A DNA stretch of 64,000 nt from Betaproteobacteria bacterium (GTDB taxonomy: Bacteria > Pseudomonadota > Gammaproteobacteria > Burkholderiales > SG8-41). Made by a program: the position numbers and the translations under genes. The notes beneath the pieces were generated by a model. It had not been told where the DNA came from and did no database searches. It saw only the letters and a list, made by a program, of their open reading frames with translations. The stretch spans positions 243-64,242 of the forward strand of contig JAQBFV010000189.1 of the NCBI GenBank assembly GCA_032123035.1. Reading direction: 5' to 3'. Each line of letters starts with the position of its first letter. Within the stretch, counting starts at the first letter, position 1. This document shows positions 4,298 through 11,400 of the stretch, one piece after another.

Positions 4298-5638
4298 ATG
4301 GATATTCCCCGCGCCGGCACCGCACCCCGCGTGCAGCCTCCGATGCAGAAAATCGGCAAGTACGAGGTCATTAAGGAGCTCGGCAAGGGCGCCACAAGTG
4401 TGGTGTACCAGGCCTACGACCCGTTCCAGAACCGTCAGGTCGCGATCAAGCTCGTATTTCCTGAAGCCCTCGTCGACCGGGATCATGGGAAACGCTATCG
4501 CAAATTGTTTGTGACGGAGGCGTCGCTCGCGGGCAAGCTCTCGCATCCTCACATCGCGGCGATCTTCGACGCTGTCGCCGGGGACGATGCCAGCTACATC
4601 GTCATGGAGTACGTGGATGGCACGACGCTAGAAAAGTACGCGCGACACGACCACTTGCTCCCGATTCACAAGATTCTGGATATTGCCTACAAGTGCGCGC
4701 GCGCCCTCGATTACGCGAGCCGGCAGGGCGTCATCCACCGCGACATCAAGCCCGCCAACATCCTGCTGGCCGATCAAGCCGATATCAAGATCTCGGATTT
4801 CGGTGCGGCACTGACGCTCGCGTCGCAAACGACGCAGGTATCCGGCGTGGGCTCGCCGGCCTACATGTCGCCGGAGCAGGTCAAGGAGCAGCCGCTCACG
4901 CACCAAACGGACATATTCTCATTGGGTGTCGTCCTGTATCAGCTGCTGACGGGGCGCTTGCCGTTCCAGGGCACCAACAACTACAGCATGATCTACCAAA
5001 TTATCAACACCGATCCGCTTCCGCCGAGCCGGCAGCGTCCGGGTATTCCCGGCAATGTCGACGCGATCGTCATGCGCGCGTTGCAGAAGAACACGGCCAA
5101 CCGCTACCAGAGCTGGGAAGATTTTGCGGCGGACCTGGTGTTAGCAATGGGGGGGCAGGAAAAGGAAGATAAGGATTTTGCCGAGGCCGAGAAGTTCGAC
5201 ATGCTGCGCAAACTCGACTTCTTCCGGCGTTTCAGCGACATCGAACTATGGGAAGTGCTGAGGCTCTCGCGCTGGCACAAGCATCAGCGCGATACAGCGC
5301 TTATCGAGGAAGGCGATATCGGCTCGTCGTTTTTCATTCTCGTCGCTGGCGAGGTGAAGGTCGTCAAACAGGACCGCCTGCTCAACGTGCTGAAGGCCGG
5401 CGAGTGCTTCGGCGAGATGGCCTACCTCGGCAAGCAGAAATTCCAGCGCTCGGCGAACGTGGTGGCGCTCTCCGCGATCACTGTCATCGAGATCCGCGCT
5501 GAATCCTTGAGCAAGGCCTCCGAGCTTTGCCGCCACCATTTCCATGGCGCATTCCTCGAGCTGCTCGTGGATCGGCTGGCGATGGCGAATGTGCGATTAT
5601 CGCAGCTACTCGCCGACCGCAACATCAGCATCTTCTAA
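4298..5638 (+). CDS. Hanks-type Ser/Thr protein kinase fused to a C-terminal cyclic-nucleotide-binding domain
   Basis: Kinase motifs GKGATSVVY, AIK, HRDIKPANILL, DFG and SPEQ. The C-terminal 130 aa carry FFRRFSD...GDIGSSFFILVAGEVKV...GECFGEMAYL (cNMP-binding fold). An alternative start is at 4343. Confidence 0.85.
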   Translation: MDIPRAGTAPRVQPPMQKIGKYEVIKELGKGATSVVYQAYDPFQNRQVAIKLVFPEALVDRDHGKRYRKLFVTEASLAGKLSHPHIAAIFDAVAGDDASYIVMEYVDGTTLEKYARHDHLLPIHKILDIAYKCARALDYASRQGVIHRDIKPANILLADQADIKISDFGAALTLASQTTQVSGVGSPAYMSPEQVKEQPLTHQTDIFSLGVVLYQLLTGRLPFQGTNNYSMIYQIINTDPLPPSRQRPGIPGNVDAIVMRALQKNTANRYQSWEDFAADLVLAMGGQEKEDKDFAEAEKFDMLRKLDFFRRFSDIELWEVLRLSRWHKHQRDTALIEEGDIGSSFFILVAGEVKVVKQDRLLNVLKAGECFGEMAYLGKQKFQRSANVVALSAITVIEIRAESLSKASELCRHHFHGAFLELLVDRLAMANVRLSQLLADRNISIF

Positions 5639-5764
5639 GCGGCAGAACCGGAGCGGCGCGCAGACGAGTCCCACGCGCAGGTTGTGGCAGGGCGGGAATC
5701 CCCGTATAGAAGAGTCTTATTGTTAGCTGACCGACCGCGGTTCCATTTTTTGGATGAGGGGGGA

Positions 5765-5992
5765 ATGGATTTCGACAAGGAACTCGACGCTCGCGGGCTG
5801 AATTGCCCGCTGCCGATTCTGCGAGCGAAGAAGGCGTTGACGGACATGGCTTCAGGGCAATCGCTCAAGATCCTGGCGACTGACCCCGGTGCGGTGAAGG
5901 ACTTCCAGGCATTCTCCAAGCAGACCGGCCATGCGTTGCTGTCGTCGGAGACGACCGGCACGGAATTCATATTTTTCATGAAAAAGAAGTAG
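5765..5992 (+). CDS. tusA: TusA-family sulfurtransferase
   Basis: 75 aa. LDARGLNCPLPILRAKKAL carries the CPxP active-site motif. A purine-rich GAGGGGGG tract ends immediately upstream of ATG 5765. The upstream part of the 5684 ORF looks non-coding. Confidence 0.8.
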   Translation: MDFDKELDARGLNCPLPILRAKKALTDMASGQSLKILATDPGAVKDFQAFSKQTGHALLSSETTGTEFIFFMKKK

Positions 5993-6088
5993 CATCGTTG
6001 CGGCCAGCGGAACCGCCGCGATAACCGGCGCGCCGCGGCGGACACGAAACGCCGCCCGAGGCGCAGAACGTGAAACACTTGAGGCTGG

Positions 6089-7171
6089 ATGGGCATGGCG
6101 GAATTCTGGCGCGTCCTCGATACCGGGCTGCGGCCTGCAGCTCAGAACATCGCGCTTAACCGCGCGCTGCTCGAGGCGCGCCAGGCCGAAGAGATCCCGA
6201 GCACGTTGCGGTTTCTGCGCTTCGCGCCGTGCGCGCTGCTCGGCTATCACCAGAGCGCCGATCAGGAACTCAACCTCGATTACTGTAGCGCGACCCAGCT
6301 CACGGTGCAGCGCCGCATCACCGGCGGCGGCGCGATCTACTTCGACGAGGGCCAGCTGGGATGGGAGCTATACCTCCATCGGCGCGACTTGGGCACGGCG
6401 GACATGCAGAAGATCTCACGGCGCCTCTGCCACGCGGCGGCGGCCGCTATAAGCGCGCTGGGGGTGGATGCGCGCTATCGCTCCCGCAACGACATCGAGG
6501 TGGACGGGCGTAAGTTATCGGGCACCGGCGGCGTTTTCGACGGCGACGCGCTGCTGTTCCAGGGCACGCTACTTCTCGACTTTGACGTCGAGAAAATGCT
6601 GCGAGTGCTCCGGATATCGACCGAAAAGCTTTCGGACAAGGCAATCGCCTCGGCGCGCGAGCGGGTCACCAGCCTGAGGGACTTGCTGGGCCGCAAGCCG
6701 GACGGCGCGCTCGTGAAACGCTACCTCACCGAAGCGTTCGAGAGCGAGTTCGGCGTCGAATTCAGCGAAGGAGAGCTGACGCTCTCCGAGCACAAGCGCT
6801 TCGAGACGGCGCTGCGCGAAATCGACCATCCGGACTGGATCAACCTCGTGTCACGGCCGGCGGCGGCGTTGCCGATCCTGGAAGCCCAGCAGAAATTCGC
6901 AGGCGGGCTGCTCCGCGCGAACGTCACATTTGACGTGCTGACGCAGACGCTGCGCCAGGTCTGGTTCACGGGGAATATCTTCGTCAGCCCGCGGCGCCTG
7001 GTCGCGGACCTTGAAGCGGTGCTGAGGGATACGCCCCTTGACCGGCTCGATGGCAAAGTGCGCGGTTTCTTCCACGGGCGCCAATTCGACACGCTCGCGC
7101 TCACGCCGGACGATTTCATCACCGTCGTGCAACTCGCGCTCAAACAGCCGGTGGCGGCGCAAAATCGATGA
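6089..7171 (+). CDS. lipoate-protein ligase family protein (LplA-like catalytic domain plus C-terminal accessory domain)
   Basis: LRFLRFAPCALLGYHQ, RRITGGGAIYFDEGQLGWELY and RNDIEVDGRKLSGTGG are BPL/LPL catalytic-domain motifs. At 360 aa it is long enough to carry a fused C-terminal domain. Confidence 0.8.
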   Translation: MGMAEFWRVLDTGLRPAAQNIALNRALLEARQAEEIPSTLRFLRFAPCALLGYHQSADQELNLDYCSATQLTVQRRITGGGAIYFDEGQLGWELYLHRRDLGTADMQKISRRLCHAAAAAISALGVDARYRSRNDIEVDGRKLSGTGGVFDGDALLFQGTLLLDFDVEKMLRVLRISTEKLSDKAIASARERVTSLRDLLGRKPDGALVKRYLTEAFESEFGVEFSEGELTLSEHKRFETALREIDHPDWINLVSRPAAALPILEAQQKFAGGLLRANVTFDVLTQTLRQVWFTGNIFVSPRRLVADLEAVLRDTPLDRLDGKVRGFFHGRQFDTLALTPDDFITVVQLALKQPVAAQNR

Positions 7172-7370
7172 GCGCCGTGCGGTGCGATGTGCTAGTGGTC
7201 GGGCTGGAGCCCGCGGGCGGCTGGTTGCCGGCAGCACAATGTTTACTGGCGACGCGGCCGGGCTGACCCAACCCATCACCGAAGCGGGCATTGCAGCGGC
7301 GGTCGTGTCCGGCGAGTGCGCAGCGACGCGGTTCAGCGCCGCGGCTGGATCGCTTTTCCCGAGCACTTTA
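7168..7370 (+). pseudogene. collapsed relic of a geranylgeranyl-reductase-like FAD-dependent oxidoreductase
   Basis: ATGA overlap with the ligase stop. A 32-codon ORF MSAVRCDVLVVGLEPAGG... is a degenerate GxGxxG N-terminus that ends at TGA 7264. In another frame from 7239, MFTGDAAGLTQPITEAGIAAAVVSGECAA is the C-terminal GDAAG motif. About 250 codons between the two parts are missing. Confidence 0.55.
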
Positions 7371-7383
7371 ACGAGGAGGCAAC

Positions 7384-7572
7384 ATGCGAAAATCCGGTCT
7401 GATTTTGCTGGCAAGCTTGCTGGTCGCGGCGTGCGACAGTGGATCGAAGGCGCCGCCGCCCGACCTCTTTAAGAGCCAGCGCGAGGCGATGGAGAAGGCA
7501 AAGAAAACGGAGGCGGTCATTGACCAGGCAGCGGCGGATCGTCTCAAACGGGAGGAAAAGGAGGCCAAGTGA
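7384..7572 (+). CDS. small lipoprotein, unknown function
   Basis: AGGAGG RBS. Signal peptide with lipobox LLVAAC, followed by a charged helical tail. Confidence 0.6.
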   Translation: MRKSGLILLASLLVAACDSGSKAPPPDLFKSQREAMEKAKKTEAVIDQAAADRLKREEKEAK

Positions 7573-7810
7573 AACCTCTCTCGTTAGTCATCGTCACGTT
7601 GGCATTGGCGGCGCTGGCGTCGGGTGTAGGCGCTCGGATGCGACCTACTCGATTCGCCTCATGACGCCGGAGACGGCGCTCAAGGCCGCCCAGGCGGGGC
7701 TGAAGAAATCTCGTGATTCCGGTTACCGGTTTGTGCTGGCTGACGCCCTCACACGTCGCGCGTGGTGGTCTACAAGGCCTCGACCGGTTATACAGGCACT
7801 CGGTCACGTG
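7569..7810 (+). pseudogene. possible frameshifted and truncated relic of a secreted GlcG/HbpS-like (DUF336) protein
   Basis: Signal peptide VKPLSLVIVTLALAALASGVGA in one frame (stop at 7662). MTPETALKAAQAGLKKSRDSGYRFVLAD follows in a second frame and HVARGGLQGLDR in a third. The remainder is cut off by the convergent DUF4126 gene. Confidence 0.3.
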
Positions 7811-7813
7811 CCG

Positions 7814-8413
7814 TCAGGCGGGGTGGCCGAGCACGCGATGGATCGCGGCGAAGACGTTCCGCACGCCGCGTAGCAGCCGCGGCGCCAGCAGCACCACCAC
7901 GACGACGAAGAGCATCAGTCCGATCAGCAGCAGCACGGGGTACTTGAACGCCGACCACAGGACGGCGATTGCCAGGGCATCTTCACCGAACGATGCCGCC
8001 CAGTTGCTGAAGGGCTCGGGTGACGCGTTGATGAGCACGCGCCCGCCTGCCTTCGTGAAATGCGCTCCCGCGGCAAATACGCCACCCAACAGTCCCGCCG
8101 CGAGCGCGAGACCCTGATCCCCGTGCGCCACAGCTGCTGCGGCGAGCAAAGCGCCGCCGGGAATCCGAATGAAAGTGTGCACGGCGTCCCAGAGGGAGTC
8201 GAAACCGGGAATTTTGTCTGCGAAGAACTCGGTTATGAAGAGTAGGCCGGAGACCCCCATAACGGCGGGGTGCGCGAGCAGCTCGAGGTGCGGCGGCAGC
8301 TCGAGAACGCCGGCGTGATGAAGGATGCCGAGGAAGAAAAGAACCGCGTAGAGCCGCACGCCGCTGGCCCAGCCGAGCCCCGCGATTAATGCCACCGTCG
8401 AGAGCGCGTCCAT
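7814..8413 (-). CDS. DUF4126-type inner-membrane protein
   Basis: Start is Met72 of the 270-aa ORF, 4 nt after the valS stop. It is polytopic and Gly/Ala/Leu-rich, with FITEFFADKIPGFDSLWD. Confidence 0.65.
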   Translation of the reverse strand: MDALSTVALIAGLGWASGVRLYAVLFFLGILHHAGVLELPPHLELLAHPAVMGVSGLLFITEFFADKIPGFDSLWDAVHTFIRIPGGALLAAAAVAHGDQGLALAAGLLGGVFAAGAHFTKAGGRVLINASPEPFSNWAASFGEDALAIAVLWSAFKYPVLLLIGLMLFVVVVVLLAPRLLRGVRNVFAAIHRVLGHPA

Positions 8414-8417
8414 CGCA

Positions 8418-11400
8418 TCAGCCGAGCCGCTGCAGCTGCTCGTCCACCTTCTCGAGCGTCGCCATGGAGCGGGCGAGCCGCTCCTTTTCCTGAGCCACGA
8501 TGAGCGGGGGCGCGCGTTCGACGAAGCTCGGGTTGTCGAGTTTGCTCCGGGCCTTGTTGATTTCCACCTCCAGCCGCCCGCGCTCTTTGTCGAGCCGCGC
8601 ACGCTCATTTTCCAGATCGATCTCAATCTTGAGCATCAGCCGGTAATCGCCCACGATCGACACCGGCGAATCGATCTGCGGCAGCTCGCGCTCGGTAATC
8701 ATGACCTCGGAGAGGCGCGCCAGCGCCGTGAGATAGGGGGCAAACTGAACGAACGGCTGGCGCCGGCCCTGGACGAGAAGTGGCAGGCGCTCCCCGGGGC
8801 CAATGCCCATGTCACTGCGAAGCGCCCGGCAGGCATTGACGAGATCCTTCAGCATCGCGATCTGCCGCTCGGCGGCCTCGTCGCAGCGCTCCGGCTGGGT
8901 TTGCGGATAGGACTGCGTCATGATCGAAGGTCCGGACTTGCCGGCGAGGGTGGCCACCTTCTGCCAGAGCTCTTCCGTGATGAACGGGATCACGGGGTGC
9001 GCGAGACGCAAGGTCGTCTCCAGCACGCGCACCAGCGTGCGACGCGTTCCCCGCTGCTCCTCCTCGCTGCCGCTGGCGAGCTGCACCTTGGCGAGTTCGA
9101 CATACCAGTCGCAGTACTCGTCCCAGACGAAGCGGTAGACCGCGCTCGCCACGTTGTCCAGCCGGTATTCCTCAAAGCCTCGAGCGACCGCGGCTTCCGT
9201 GCGCTGGAGTTGACTCACGATCCAACGGTCTGCCGGCGAGAGCTCGACGGGGAGCTTCTCGTCCAGCCCGACGTCCCGGCCGGCGCAGTTCATCAGCACG
9301 AAACGGCTGGCATTCCATAGCTTGTTGCAGAAGTTGCCGTAGCCCTCGCAGCGCTTGAAGTCGAAATTGACGTTCCGGCCGAGCGTAGCATAGGCGGCCA
9401 TGGAGAAGCGCAGAGCATCAGCGCCATAAGCCGGGATCCCCTGCGGAAACTCCTTCCGCGTGCGCTCGACGATGCCCGGCGCATCCTCCGGCTTGCGCAA
9501 TCCCGTAGCGCGCTTCTCGAGGAGCAAGGGCAGAGTAATGCCGTCGATCAGGTCGACCGGGTCGATCGTGTTGCCTTCCGACTTCGACATTTTCTTGCCG
9601 TCAGCATCGCGCACGATGCCGTGGATGTAGACGTCGCGGAACGGCACGCGGCCCGTGAAATGGGTCGTCATCATGATCATGCGCGCGACCCAGAAGAAGA
9701 TGATCTCGTAACCGGTGACGAGCACGCTCGAAGGCAGGTAAAGGTCGTAGGCCGTCCCATCATCGCCCTGCGTCTCCGGCCAGCCCAGCGTCGAGTGGCA
9801 AACCAGCGCGGAAGAAAACCAGGTGTCCAGCACATCCGGGTCGCGCGTGAGGAGGGCACCACCGGCTTTCGCCTGTGCTTCCTCCTCGCTGCGCGCGACG
9901 TAGACGTTGCCGCGCTCGTCGTGCCAGGCGGGAATCTGGTGGCCCCACCAAAGCTGGCGCGAGATACACCAGTCCTGGATGTTCTTCATCCACTGGTTGT
10001 ACGTGTTCACCCAGTTATCAGGGTAGAACCGGACCTCGCCTTTCTCGACCACCTCGCGTGCCACCTGGGCGATGGTCTTGCCGGGATGTAGCGTGCCGGC
10101 AGGCGCGGGCTTCGTAACGGCCACGAACCACTGGTCCGTTAGCATCGGCTCGACCACCGAATCCGTGCGTCCGCAACGGGGGACCACCATCCGGTGCGGT
10201 TTGACGGACTCGAGCAGGCCGAATGCCTTGAGGTCATCCACAATCCGCCGGCGTGCCTCATAGCGGTCGAGACCGCGGTAGGTCGCGGGCAGCAGCTCTG
10301 CCGCCGATTTTCCGTAAACCCCGGCCGTGCTTCCGGGGTGACGTCCGCCCTCGAGGTCATCGAGCGGGGAGTCCTTGAGCCGGGCATTCTTCTTGAGAAT
10401 GCTGGGCGGGTAGGCCTGCGTGTAGCCCGCTGCCTTGAGTGTCTGGCCGATGATCGGGCGGTGCCGCAACCATATGTCGAAATCGTTGAAGTCGTGGGCG
10501 GGCGTGATCTTCAGGCAACCCGTGCCGAATTCCTTGTCTACGTACTCGTCGCCAATAACCGGGATTTCGCGCTCTGCGAGCGGCAGCACGACCATCTTGC
10601 CGATGAGCCCGCGATAGCGTTCGTCGCCGGGATTCACTGCAACGGCGACGTCGCCGAGCATCGTCTCGGGGCGGGTAGTTGCAACGGTGACATGGCCGCT
10701 GCCGTCCTTGAGCGGGTAGCGAATATGCCAGAGATTGCCGTCCTCCTCCTGGCTTTCGACCTCGAGATCGGAGACGGCGGTGAGCAGGACGGGATCCCAG
10801 TTGACGAGCCGCTTGCCGCGATAGATGAGGCCCTGCTCGTAGAGGCGCACGAACGTTTCAGTCACGACGCCCGAGAACTTCTCGTCCATCGTGAAGTACT
10901 CCCGCTCCCAGTCACACGAGGCGCCCAGCCGGCGCATCTGCTGGGTGATGGTGGAGCCGGACTGCTGTTTCCACTCCCACACCTTGTCGATGAATTTGTC
11001 GCGCCCGAGCGCCTCGCGAGAGGTTCCCTGCTGCTCCAGCTGGCGCTCCACCACGATTTGCGTTGCGATGCCGGCATGATCGGTGCCGGGCAGCCATAGC
11101 GTGTTGAAACCGCGCATGCGGTGATATCGGGTCAGCGCGTCCATGATAGTCTGGTTGAACGCGTGGCCCATGTGCAGCACGCCCGTGACGTTCGGCGGCG
11201 GCAATTGAATGCAGAAACGGTCGTTTTTGTCCGGATTGAGACCGGCTTTGAAATAGCCGTTCTCGTCCCAGAAGGAGTACCAGCGCGCCTCAATCGCTGC
11301 CGGCTCAAAACTCTTGGCGAGCTCCATCTCGGGAGGGAAGGGGCGGCTTCCGGGAAAAGCGGGAATTATACTGGAGGCAGGCAGCGCGGCTTCCGGCTCA

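Follow-up and report, generated by a model that had tools for sequence, protein, structure and literature searches.

An intact sLpl(AB)-type lipoate-protein ligase gene in the remnant of a type I sHdr-LbpA cluster of a betaproteobacterium

The window analysed here is a stretch of 64,000 nucleotides from a Betaproteobacteria bacterium (Burkholderiales, SG8-41; assembly GCA_032123035.1, contig JAQBFV010000189.1, positions 243 to 64,242 of the forward strand). A short locus near its start (Table 1) begins with tusA, the gene of a sulfur carrier, continues with an intact lipoate-protein ligase gene of the sLpl(AB) type and leads into the wreck of lipT, which encodes an oxidoreductase dependent on flavin adenine dinucleotide (FAD) and similar to geranylgeranyl reductases (GGR). 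The locus is securely read as the relic of a sHdr-LbpA cluster. The sLpl(AB)-LipS1/LipS2 pathway of lipoate assembly has been described by Tanabe et al. 2023 (PMC10332631) and Kümpel et al. 2026 (bioRxiv 10.64898/2026.10.01.755906), and for sLpl(AB) ligases Cao et al. 2018 is cited in Tanabe et al. 2023.

The sequence-only reading, an earlier annotation of the window made from its letters alone, had called the first gene a TusA-family sulfur carrier, and the family match agrees (Table 1). The product is 79-84% identical to the TusA proteins that head intact shdr clusters. Its motif is CPLP, so the conserved Cys-Pro-x-Pro of the TusA fold is present; against the E. coli TusA equivalog NF001423 it scores 62 bits, short of the cut-off of 78.

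The second gene had been predicted to encode a ligase of 360 amino acids (aa) with an extra C-terminal domain, an architecture that the domain searches confirm. The catalytic domain matches PF21948 (LplA-B_cat) with 167.7 bits over residues 17-218, and the fused C-terminal domain is LplB-like (NF053749, residues 269-351, expect value (E) 4.5e-6; T. acidophilum LplB 3r07_C, E 4.7e-4). The gene has two in-frame ATGs, at 6089 and 6095, and relatives use the second (MAE...), which is also better spaced from the GAGG at about 6081; a length of 358 aa is therefore probable. The catalytic lysine, Lys142 in GRKLSGTGG, aligns with E. coli K133, and both the lipoyl-AMP loop RRITGGGAIYFD (RRxxGGGAxYxD) and the adenylate-loop arginines are present. 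Matches to LplA entries of the PDB reach E 1e-26, the nearest solved structures being LplA enzymes of Gram-positive bacteria and archaea; E. coli LplA (1X2G) matches at E 1e-13 only.

The ligase was placed apart from ordinary LplA enzymes by several lines of evidence. It remains below every curated cut-off, including that of the canonical LplA model TIGR00545 (149.9 bits, cut-off 280). A quick maximum-likelihood (ML) protein tree puts it deep inside the clade of shdr/lipS-linked ligases, as sister to copies from intact clusters, E. coli LplA being separated from this clade by about 6 substitutions per site; the tree holds no biochemically characterised sLpl(AB), and group membership rests on the gene context of 73/80 loci. 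Model cut-offs, tree and gene context together rule out a housekeeping LplA. The protein shares fold family and chemistry with E. coli LplA/Lpl(AB) (clade 2) and is likewise the LplA-type ligase standing beside LipB-LipA, but it differs in its clade, its very long branch and its lack of the basic residues that dock GcvH. E. coli Lpl(AB) docks the acidic GcvH through R47, R140, K143 and K272 (bioRxiv 10.64898/2026.10.01.755906); at these positions, taken from the same study, the window ligase has the non-basic residues Y53, V149, G152 and L284.

With sLpl(AB) enzymes the window ligase shares the two-domain fusion of LplA and LplB, the catalytic lysine, the lipoyl-AMP loop, the ATGA coupling to lipT and non-basic docking positions, and its identity to copies from intact lipS1-slpl(AB)-lipT-lipS2 operons is 89-90%. 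Domain architecture, catalytic motifs, phylogeny and ancestry thus identify it as a member of the sLpl(AB) group. It stands alone, unlike other sLpl(AB) copies, in a genome without LbpA, LipS1, LipS2, a functional LipT and sHdr. Linkage to the lip genes is reduced to lipT fragments, lipS1 and lipS2 being deleted; because the sister loci L090 and L095 have the linkage, its absence here, like that of co-occurrence with LbpA, is a secondary loss. By the docking-residue criterion of Kümpel et al. 2026 (bioRxiv 10.64898/2026.10.01.755906) the protein is an LbpA-type ligase without LbpA.

The ancestral arrangement is preserved in relatives. A scan of one genome per species yielded 80 loci encoding relatives of the ligase, onto all of which the 20 proteins of the complete Sulfuriferula locus L016 were mapped. 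The ligase lies in shdr and/or lipS-lipT context in 73 of them, typically in the order tusA-(dsrE3)-shdrC1-B1-A-hyp-C2-B2-lbpA-dsrE-lbpA-lipS-slpl(AB)-lipT-lipS. The upstream and downstream radical S-adenosylmethionine (SAM) genes are named lipS1 and lipS2 by position only. Pfam matches of the reference genes are GCV_H (LbpA), Radical_SAM (both LipS) and HbpS-like (the small secreted protein), and the intact LipT of L016 combines PF01494 (FAD_binding_3) with PF22578 (GGR_cat). The lipS1-slpl(AB)-lipT-lipS2 operon is that described by Tanabe et al. 2023 (PMC10332631). Downstream of lipS2, loci L016 (15836-17624), L006, L007, L008, L011, L012 and L013 also carry a conserved trio of genes for a 136-aa protein without Pfam match, a 308-aa second protein with LplA/LipB catalytic domain (PF21948, 55.8 bits, without LplB domain) and a 130-aa protein. 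The genome of the window lacks the whole trio, and a role of the trio in lipoate assembly is not described in the sLpl(AB)-LipS1/S2 literature examined.

The best reference for the window is the metagenome contig L090/L091, whose ligase is 89% identical. Its gene order is shdrB1-A-hyp-C2-B2-lbpA-lipS1-slpl(AB)-lipT (364 aa)-lipoprotein (62 aa)-hbpS-like (166 aa)-lipS2-two small genes-DUF4126-valS, intact between sHdrB1, at which the available flank starts, and valS; on the right-hand side its flank matches that of the window. A second relative, L095, has a 90% identical ligase, a full-length lipT and an open reading frame (ORF) of 330 aa upstream of the ligase. Intact relatives thus carry the cluster at the same chromosomal site, ending in DUF4126-valS. 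The window resembles type I shdr-lbpA-lip clusters such as those of Sulfuriferula (L016/L018) in site, orthologous genes and the order of the surviving ends, with tusA on the left and lipoprotein, hbpS-like gene, DUF4126 and valS on the right; further examples of type I are Hyphomicrobium denitrificans and Thioalkalivibrio (PMC10332631). It differs from them in that about 12 kb are missing. The earlier proposal of a remnant of the sHdr-LbpA and LipS1/LipS2 system is therefore upheld by the context of the 73 loci and by synteny.

The missing DNA was removed by at least four deletions, about 12 kb in all, on the lineage to the window genome. Upstream, window positions 5980-6069 correspond to L012 1042-1132, just before shdrC1 (L012 1144), and the alignment resumes in the ligase, where window 6106 equals L012 10012. 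About 8.8 kb are gone between tusA and the ligase, comprising shdrC1B1A-hyp-C2B2, lbpA, dsrE, the second lbpA and lipS1, so that the ligase now lies directly behind the old tusA-shdrC1 spacer, the shdr leader. Collinearity with L090 (6001-7126) extends over window 6095-7220, through the ligase and into lipT as far as codon 18. The first deletion inside lipT took 706 nt at the microhomology GCGGGCGGC (7212-7220, where both alignments to L090 overlap), and because 706 nt are 235 codons plus 1 nt, the frame is broken. The second took 154 nt (51 codons) at the microhomology GCGCAGCG (7315-7325). Both thus lie at short GC-rich microhomologies. Downstream, L090 8508-11256 (2749 nt) is replaced by 53 nt (window 7741-7793), a loss of about 2.7 kb that includes the rest of the hbpS-like gene, lipS2 and two small genes. 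The hbpS-like relic retains about 58 first codons, with a 1-nt frameshift near 7637 and a 40-nt scrap at 7747-7786. This gene is intact (166 aa) in L001, L002, L012 and L030, and the damage is specific to the window lineage.

The lipT segment is a pseudogene remnant, with about 80% of the gene deleted. The ATGA overlap between the ligase stop and the lipT start is retained, and in it starts, at 7168, a 32-codon ORF ending at 7266 (MSAVRCDVLVVGLEPAGG...). A second frame over 7240-7300 (GDAAGLTQPITEAGIAAAV) contains GDAAG...TxAGI and matches positions 255-295 of the 297 of TIGR02032 (E 1.3e-5), the C-terminal end of this geranylgeranyl-reductase family model; the GGR-like flavoprotein wreck recognised earlier behind the ATGA overlap is thus corroborated. 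Its expected homology to the lipT that follows slpl(AB) in relatives was also found, with 83-85% nucleotide identity of 7168-7370 to the intact lipT of L090 and L095. Unlike intact LipT, the window has no complete FAD-binding and GGR catalytic domains in one frame. The sequence-only reading was right about some 18 N-terminal codons, an out-of-frame C-terminal motif and a large internal loss; it needs correction in that three fragments remain instead of two, and that the supposed single loss of about 250 codons consists of 235 plus 51 codons lost in two events. VVGLEPAGG, taken as an altered motif, differs by one residue from the VVGLGPxGG native to relatives.

Table 1. Features of the collapsed locus in window coordinates.
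Feature	Position	Strand	Remarks
tusA	5765..5992	+	75 aa, PF01206 83.8 bits; active-site Cys in LNCPLP; headed the former shdr cluster
tusA-ligase spacer with the ~8.8-kb deletion junction	5993..6088	+	
Old tusA-shdrC1 spacer	5993-6069	+	aligned to L012
Junction and ligase ribosome-binding site (GAGG at ~6081)	~6070-6088	+	
slpl(AB), intact ligase gene	6089..7171	+	360 aa; 358 aa if the start is ATG 6095
lipT 5' fragment, codons 1 to ~18, FAD-binding GxGxxG region	7168..7220	+	collinear with L090 7074-7126 and with L095
lipT middle fragment, codons ~251-288 of the 364-aa L090 LipT	7212..7325	+	83% identity to L090 7824-7937
lipT 3' fragment, codons ~336-364, including the ribosome-binding site of the next gene	7315..7383	+	85% identity to L090 from 8081
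62-aa lipoprotein gene, intact, LVAAC lipobox	7384..7572	+	conserved in L001, L090, L088, L092
hbpS-like relic (secreted HbpS/GlcG-like, PF03928)	7569..7813	+	two-frame tblastn match to the intact 166-aa L002 protein
DUF4126 membrane protein gene, then valS	7814..8626	-	PF13548 179 bits; right-hand flank conserved in collapsed and intact relatives

The 62-aa lipoprotein has a Lys/Glu-rich tail and no family match. In intact clusters its gene separates lipT from the hbpS-like gene, and all collapsed loci examined retain it intact. The upstream neighbour of tusA (window 4298-5638) encodes a Ser/Thr kinase of the Hanks type with a fused cyclic-nucleotide-binding domain, and the orphan loci L001, L005 and L026 likewise have a kinase-like ORF upstream of tusA. 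Scans of 5500-8000 for promoters, terminators and repeats gave nothing above chance.

The assembly is a draft of 371 contigs (3.64 Mb, N50 14 kb, 95.9% complete, 5.5% contamination), and the missing genes could in principle reflect a misassembled or mis-binned metagenome-assembled genome (MAG), or shdr, lbpA and lipS genes hidden in the unassembled 4%. We consider such an artefact extremely improbable. The junctions lie inside the longest contig (64 kb) between the conserved flanks kinase-tusA and DUF4126-valS, and in relatives the missing genes sit exactly between tusA and the ligase, where the deletion lies. The independent MAG L001, whose ligase is 92% identical, is collinear with window 5657-7640 at about 90-91% identity, ungapped across all lipT junctions, and so carries the same junctions at some 10% nucleotide divergence; its genome, G008, also lacks sHdrB1, LbpA and LipS2. 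Logan contigs from three runs (L092-L094) have the same gene order including the upstream junction; of these only L092 was aligned, and its tusA-ligase spacer, like that of L001, is collinear without gaps. The upstream junction thus recurs in a separate MAG and in three Logan contigs, which rules out an assembly artefact as the cause of the collapse.

Between window and L001 the lipT scar has diverged by 8.5%, against 13.8% at four-fold sites, so the collapse predates the split of the two. Erosion continued separately in each lineage afterwards: the hbpS-like gene is intact in L001, a relic in the window and gone in L092, and L092 also lost the middle lipT fragment through a further CCGCGG-mediated deletion. 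In the nucleotide tree, window and L001 join the intact L090 with 100% support, and the orphan pair of L002 and L088 falls outside (99%). Because the intact L090 nests between the orphan groups, the ligase-sparing collapses are independent and number at least two in this small clade. A single ancient origin of all TusA-ligase orphans, left open by the protein tree, is thereby rejected for the window clade. Window and L002 have common outer boundaries of their lipT deletions; a shared origin of these was disfavoured once L090 and L092 were added, and they are better explained by reuse of GC-rich microhomologies (GCGGGCGGC / CCGCGG).

The sister lineage has an arrangement of its own, in L088 (2963-5896) and L002 (7686-9900), with tusA, a dsrE-family gene, a FadL/Toluene_X outer-membrane protein gene and the ligase. 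An ArsR-type regulator precedes tusA in L088, the one locus of the two inspected for it. A decaying cluster is seen in L009 (80-4900), with shdrC1 scraps, lbpA, an intact ligase, lipT in two pieces and a 10% fragment of lipS2.

Across the genome, tblastn with the 20 Sulfuriferula cluster proteins gave matches to TusA, the ligase and the lipT scrap only, none of which lies outside the window. The genome-wide search that had been called for accordingly yielded no sHdr, LbpA, LipS1/2 or intact lipT, and every known partner of the ligase is absent. SoxB, SoxA/Y and DsrA were not found in the genome either. Unlike in type I clusters, no sulfur-oxidising function can remain, and the Sox and rDsr systems are missing as well. 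One GcvH-family gene is present on contig C76. It gives a 34-37% match to LbpA and is, in its gcvT-H-PA-PB operon, a canonical GcvH and not an LbpA. Two other weak GCV_H matches lie inside long unannotated open frames of 446 and 649 aa and probably represent the lipoyl domains of larger enzymes, for example E2 or Lpd. LipB and LipA are encoded side by side on C147, so housekeeping lipoylation is independent of the window ligase, which is the only LplA-type ligase of the genome.

Among 24 other species of the genus, seven have the ligase together with sHdrB1, two have the ligase without sHdrB1 (G008, which is L001, and G014, which is L002), 14 have neither, and G021 has only a distant LplA-like match of 36% identity. 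Searches of G008 found one GcvH only, and no sHdrB1, LbpA or LipS2. In an order-level sample comprising the window genome and 400 others, each of at least 90% completeness, 61 genomes carry the ligase and 60 carry LipS2; apart from the window genome these are the same genomes (60/60 co-occurrence elsewhere). By this sample the orphan state is exceptional.

Selection on the ligase was estimated as the ratio of non-synonymous to synonymous substitution rates (dN/dS, omega), with frames fixed by tblastn. The divergence between the window and L001 copies is all post-collapse and amounts to dS 0.261 and dN 0.039 (omega 0.148), with 30.5 non-synonymous and 59.5 synonymous differences; the neutral ratio of 3:1 is rejected (binomial P 1.2e-16). 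For TusA of the same pair dN/dS is 0.096. Pairs of in-cluster ligases range from 0.09 to 0.25, the closest intact pairs from 0.088 to 0.10. With ancestors reconstructed by parsimony, the non-synonymous to synonymous (N:S) counts per branch are 16:25 for the window, 11:32 for L001 and 20:58 for the intact sister L090. The difference between orphan and intact branches is not significant (Fisher P 0.39), and relaxed selection on the orphan ligase was rejected on this basis. Comparison of the loci shows a ligase frame that stayed intact, and under purifying selection, while the flanks eroded independently in at least three sister lineages.

Active-site conservation was followed over 70 near-invariant columns, those with a conservation of 97% or more among 73 cluster-linked homologues. 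Retention is 68/70 in the window, 69/70 in L001 and 70/70 in L005; private changes at these sites are P132S and D296N in the window and G147S in L001. Other orphans keep less: L002 64/70, L088 66/70 with K142R, L020, L025 and L026 50-53/70, and L030 44/70. The ligase homologues of L020, L025, L026 and L030 have full-length frames with omega 0.28-0.41 and 17-26 changed near-invariant residues, and they lost the catalytic lysine, now R or T, together with the GGGA(I/V)Y loop and the GTGG motif; these four may be pseudoenzymes or slowly decaying genes. They lie directly behind tusA (L020 10001-11077, L025 5287-6339, L026 7119-8177, L030 4206-5273). The contig of L026 (CAZFRR010000204.1) also has a second, complete lip-shdr cluster, locus L054; L025, on another contig, has shdr genes downstream.

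These data bear on whether the window ligase is a functionless survivor, a pseudogene-in-waiting whose constraint reflects lag or chance. All of its known partners are absent, private substitutions at near-invariant sites occur in window and L001 alike, omega exceeds that of the closest intact pairs by a factor of about 1.5, in independent orphans the active site, catalytic lysine included, is lost to graded degrees, and the gene was lost altogether in about half of the species of the genus; an open frame is in itself weak evidence, as high G+C keeps many spurious frames open. Neutrality is nevertheless rejected over a post-collapse dS of 0.26 (P ~1e-16), at an omega resembling that of the intact sister branch. 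Moreover, the 1.07 kb of the ligase are free of indels and stops in window, L001 and L092 despite independent losses in the flanks, and at least two independent collapses spared the gene, each needing separate deletions on either side. On balance we regard a functionless survivor as unlikely.

The decayed orphans also raise the question of a non-catalytic role with TusA, e.g. of the ligase homologue as a binding or scaffold partner in sulfur trafficking. The position of tusA directly upstream in every orphan locus of three lineages (window, L001, L092 and L005; L020, L025 and L026; L030) agrees with it, as do the copies without lysine or loop (L020, L025, L026, L030, L088), which remain full-length with omega 0.28-0.41, or 0.23 for the pair L088-L002. 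The adjacency, however, follows from the geometry of the deletions, tusA being the first gene of the cluster; an omega of 0.3-0.4 may average the time before and after loss of function; the sLpl(AB)-LipS1/S2 literature examined holds no evidence of an interaction between TusA and the ligase; and the catalytic apparatus of the window copy, which such a role would not need, is fully conserved. We regard a non-catalytic role as quite improbable, though it is conceivable, as is slow decay. The active sites of the graded orphan series suggest that such genomes lose the catalytic function in the end.

From the strong post-collapse purifying selection, the repeated independent sparing of the ORF and the fully conserved active site we conclude that the window ligase is a functional enzyme now, or was until very recently. 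Our preferred reading, to which we give a probability of roughly 0.72, is a collapsed type I sHdr-LbpA cluster with private lipS1-slpl(AB)-lipT-lipS2 operon whose ligase is still kept for a function outside sHdr. The deletions left tusA and slpl(AB) adjacent, and the orphan enzyme would still be an active ATP-dependent lipoate/octanoate:protein ligase. Its most likely role would be to attach free, scavenged lipoate or octanoate to GcvH or an E2 lipoyl domain, alongside LipB-LipA. The sequence-only reading had left the choice between a cluster in the course of dismantling and a ligase kept for another acceptor; each holds in part, since the cluster is dismantled with its flanks eroding, and purifying selection on the ligase since the collapse favours its being kept for some function.

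Several observations weigh against this reading. Of the branches compared, the terminal branch of the window has the highest N:S, and its copy carries two private near-invariant changes. Because other orphan lineages lost the catalytic lysine, long-term dispensability of catalysis is plausible. The LbpA-linked intact sisters have Y/A/G/L at the docking sites, from which the window differs only at the second (V for A), and in published assays sLpl(AB) enzymes showed a strong preference for LbpA and mostly failed with GcvH (bioRxiv 10.64898/2026.10.01.755906). The salvage step is weak because the docking residues are unchanged from these LbpA-specific sisters; the published specificity argues against salvage too. 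A search of the genome yielded no acceptor for the window ligase, and since most species of the genus are without such a ligase, salvage is not essential in the genus. Nor do the data point to re-targeting to GcvH: no basic docking residues were gained, and net charge and isoelectric point do not differ from those of the in-cluster sisters. A second role of sLpl(AB) without LbpA, LipS1/S2 and sHdr, in which the orphan enzyme of this lineage, expressed from the former shdr leader, would serve as the only lipoate/octanoate salvage ligase or act on an unrecognised acceptor, is put forward only tentatively. In a radical form, this idea would make the tusA-slpl(AB) pair a functional module that outlasts active-site decay, as in L020, L025, L026, L030 and L088.

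The locus represents no new kind of system; its novelty lies in a documented orphan sLpl(AB) under selection, together with a stepwise record of the dismantling of an island. If the ligase were inactive or unused, the locus would be a clear example of reductive gene loss only. The sLpl(AB)-LipS1/S2 pathway is a recent addition to the literature, and its ligase is regarded as acting strictly on LbpA. Natural deletion has taken away LbpA, the enzymes that insert sulfur and the whole of sHdr, yet in several independent lineages purifying selection has acted on the ligase over a measurable span of divergence. The window ligase and its 89% identical in-cluster sister form a ready test case for ligase specificity, and the graded series of orphans, from 70/70 down to 44/70 invariant residues, maps which residues matter. 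The locus as a whole records how a 12-kb metabolic island was dismantled step by step through microhomology-mediated deletions.

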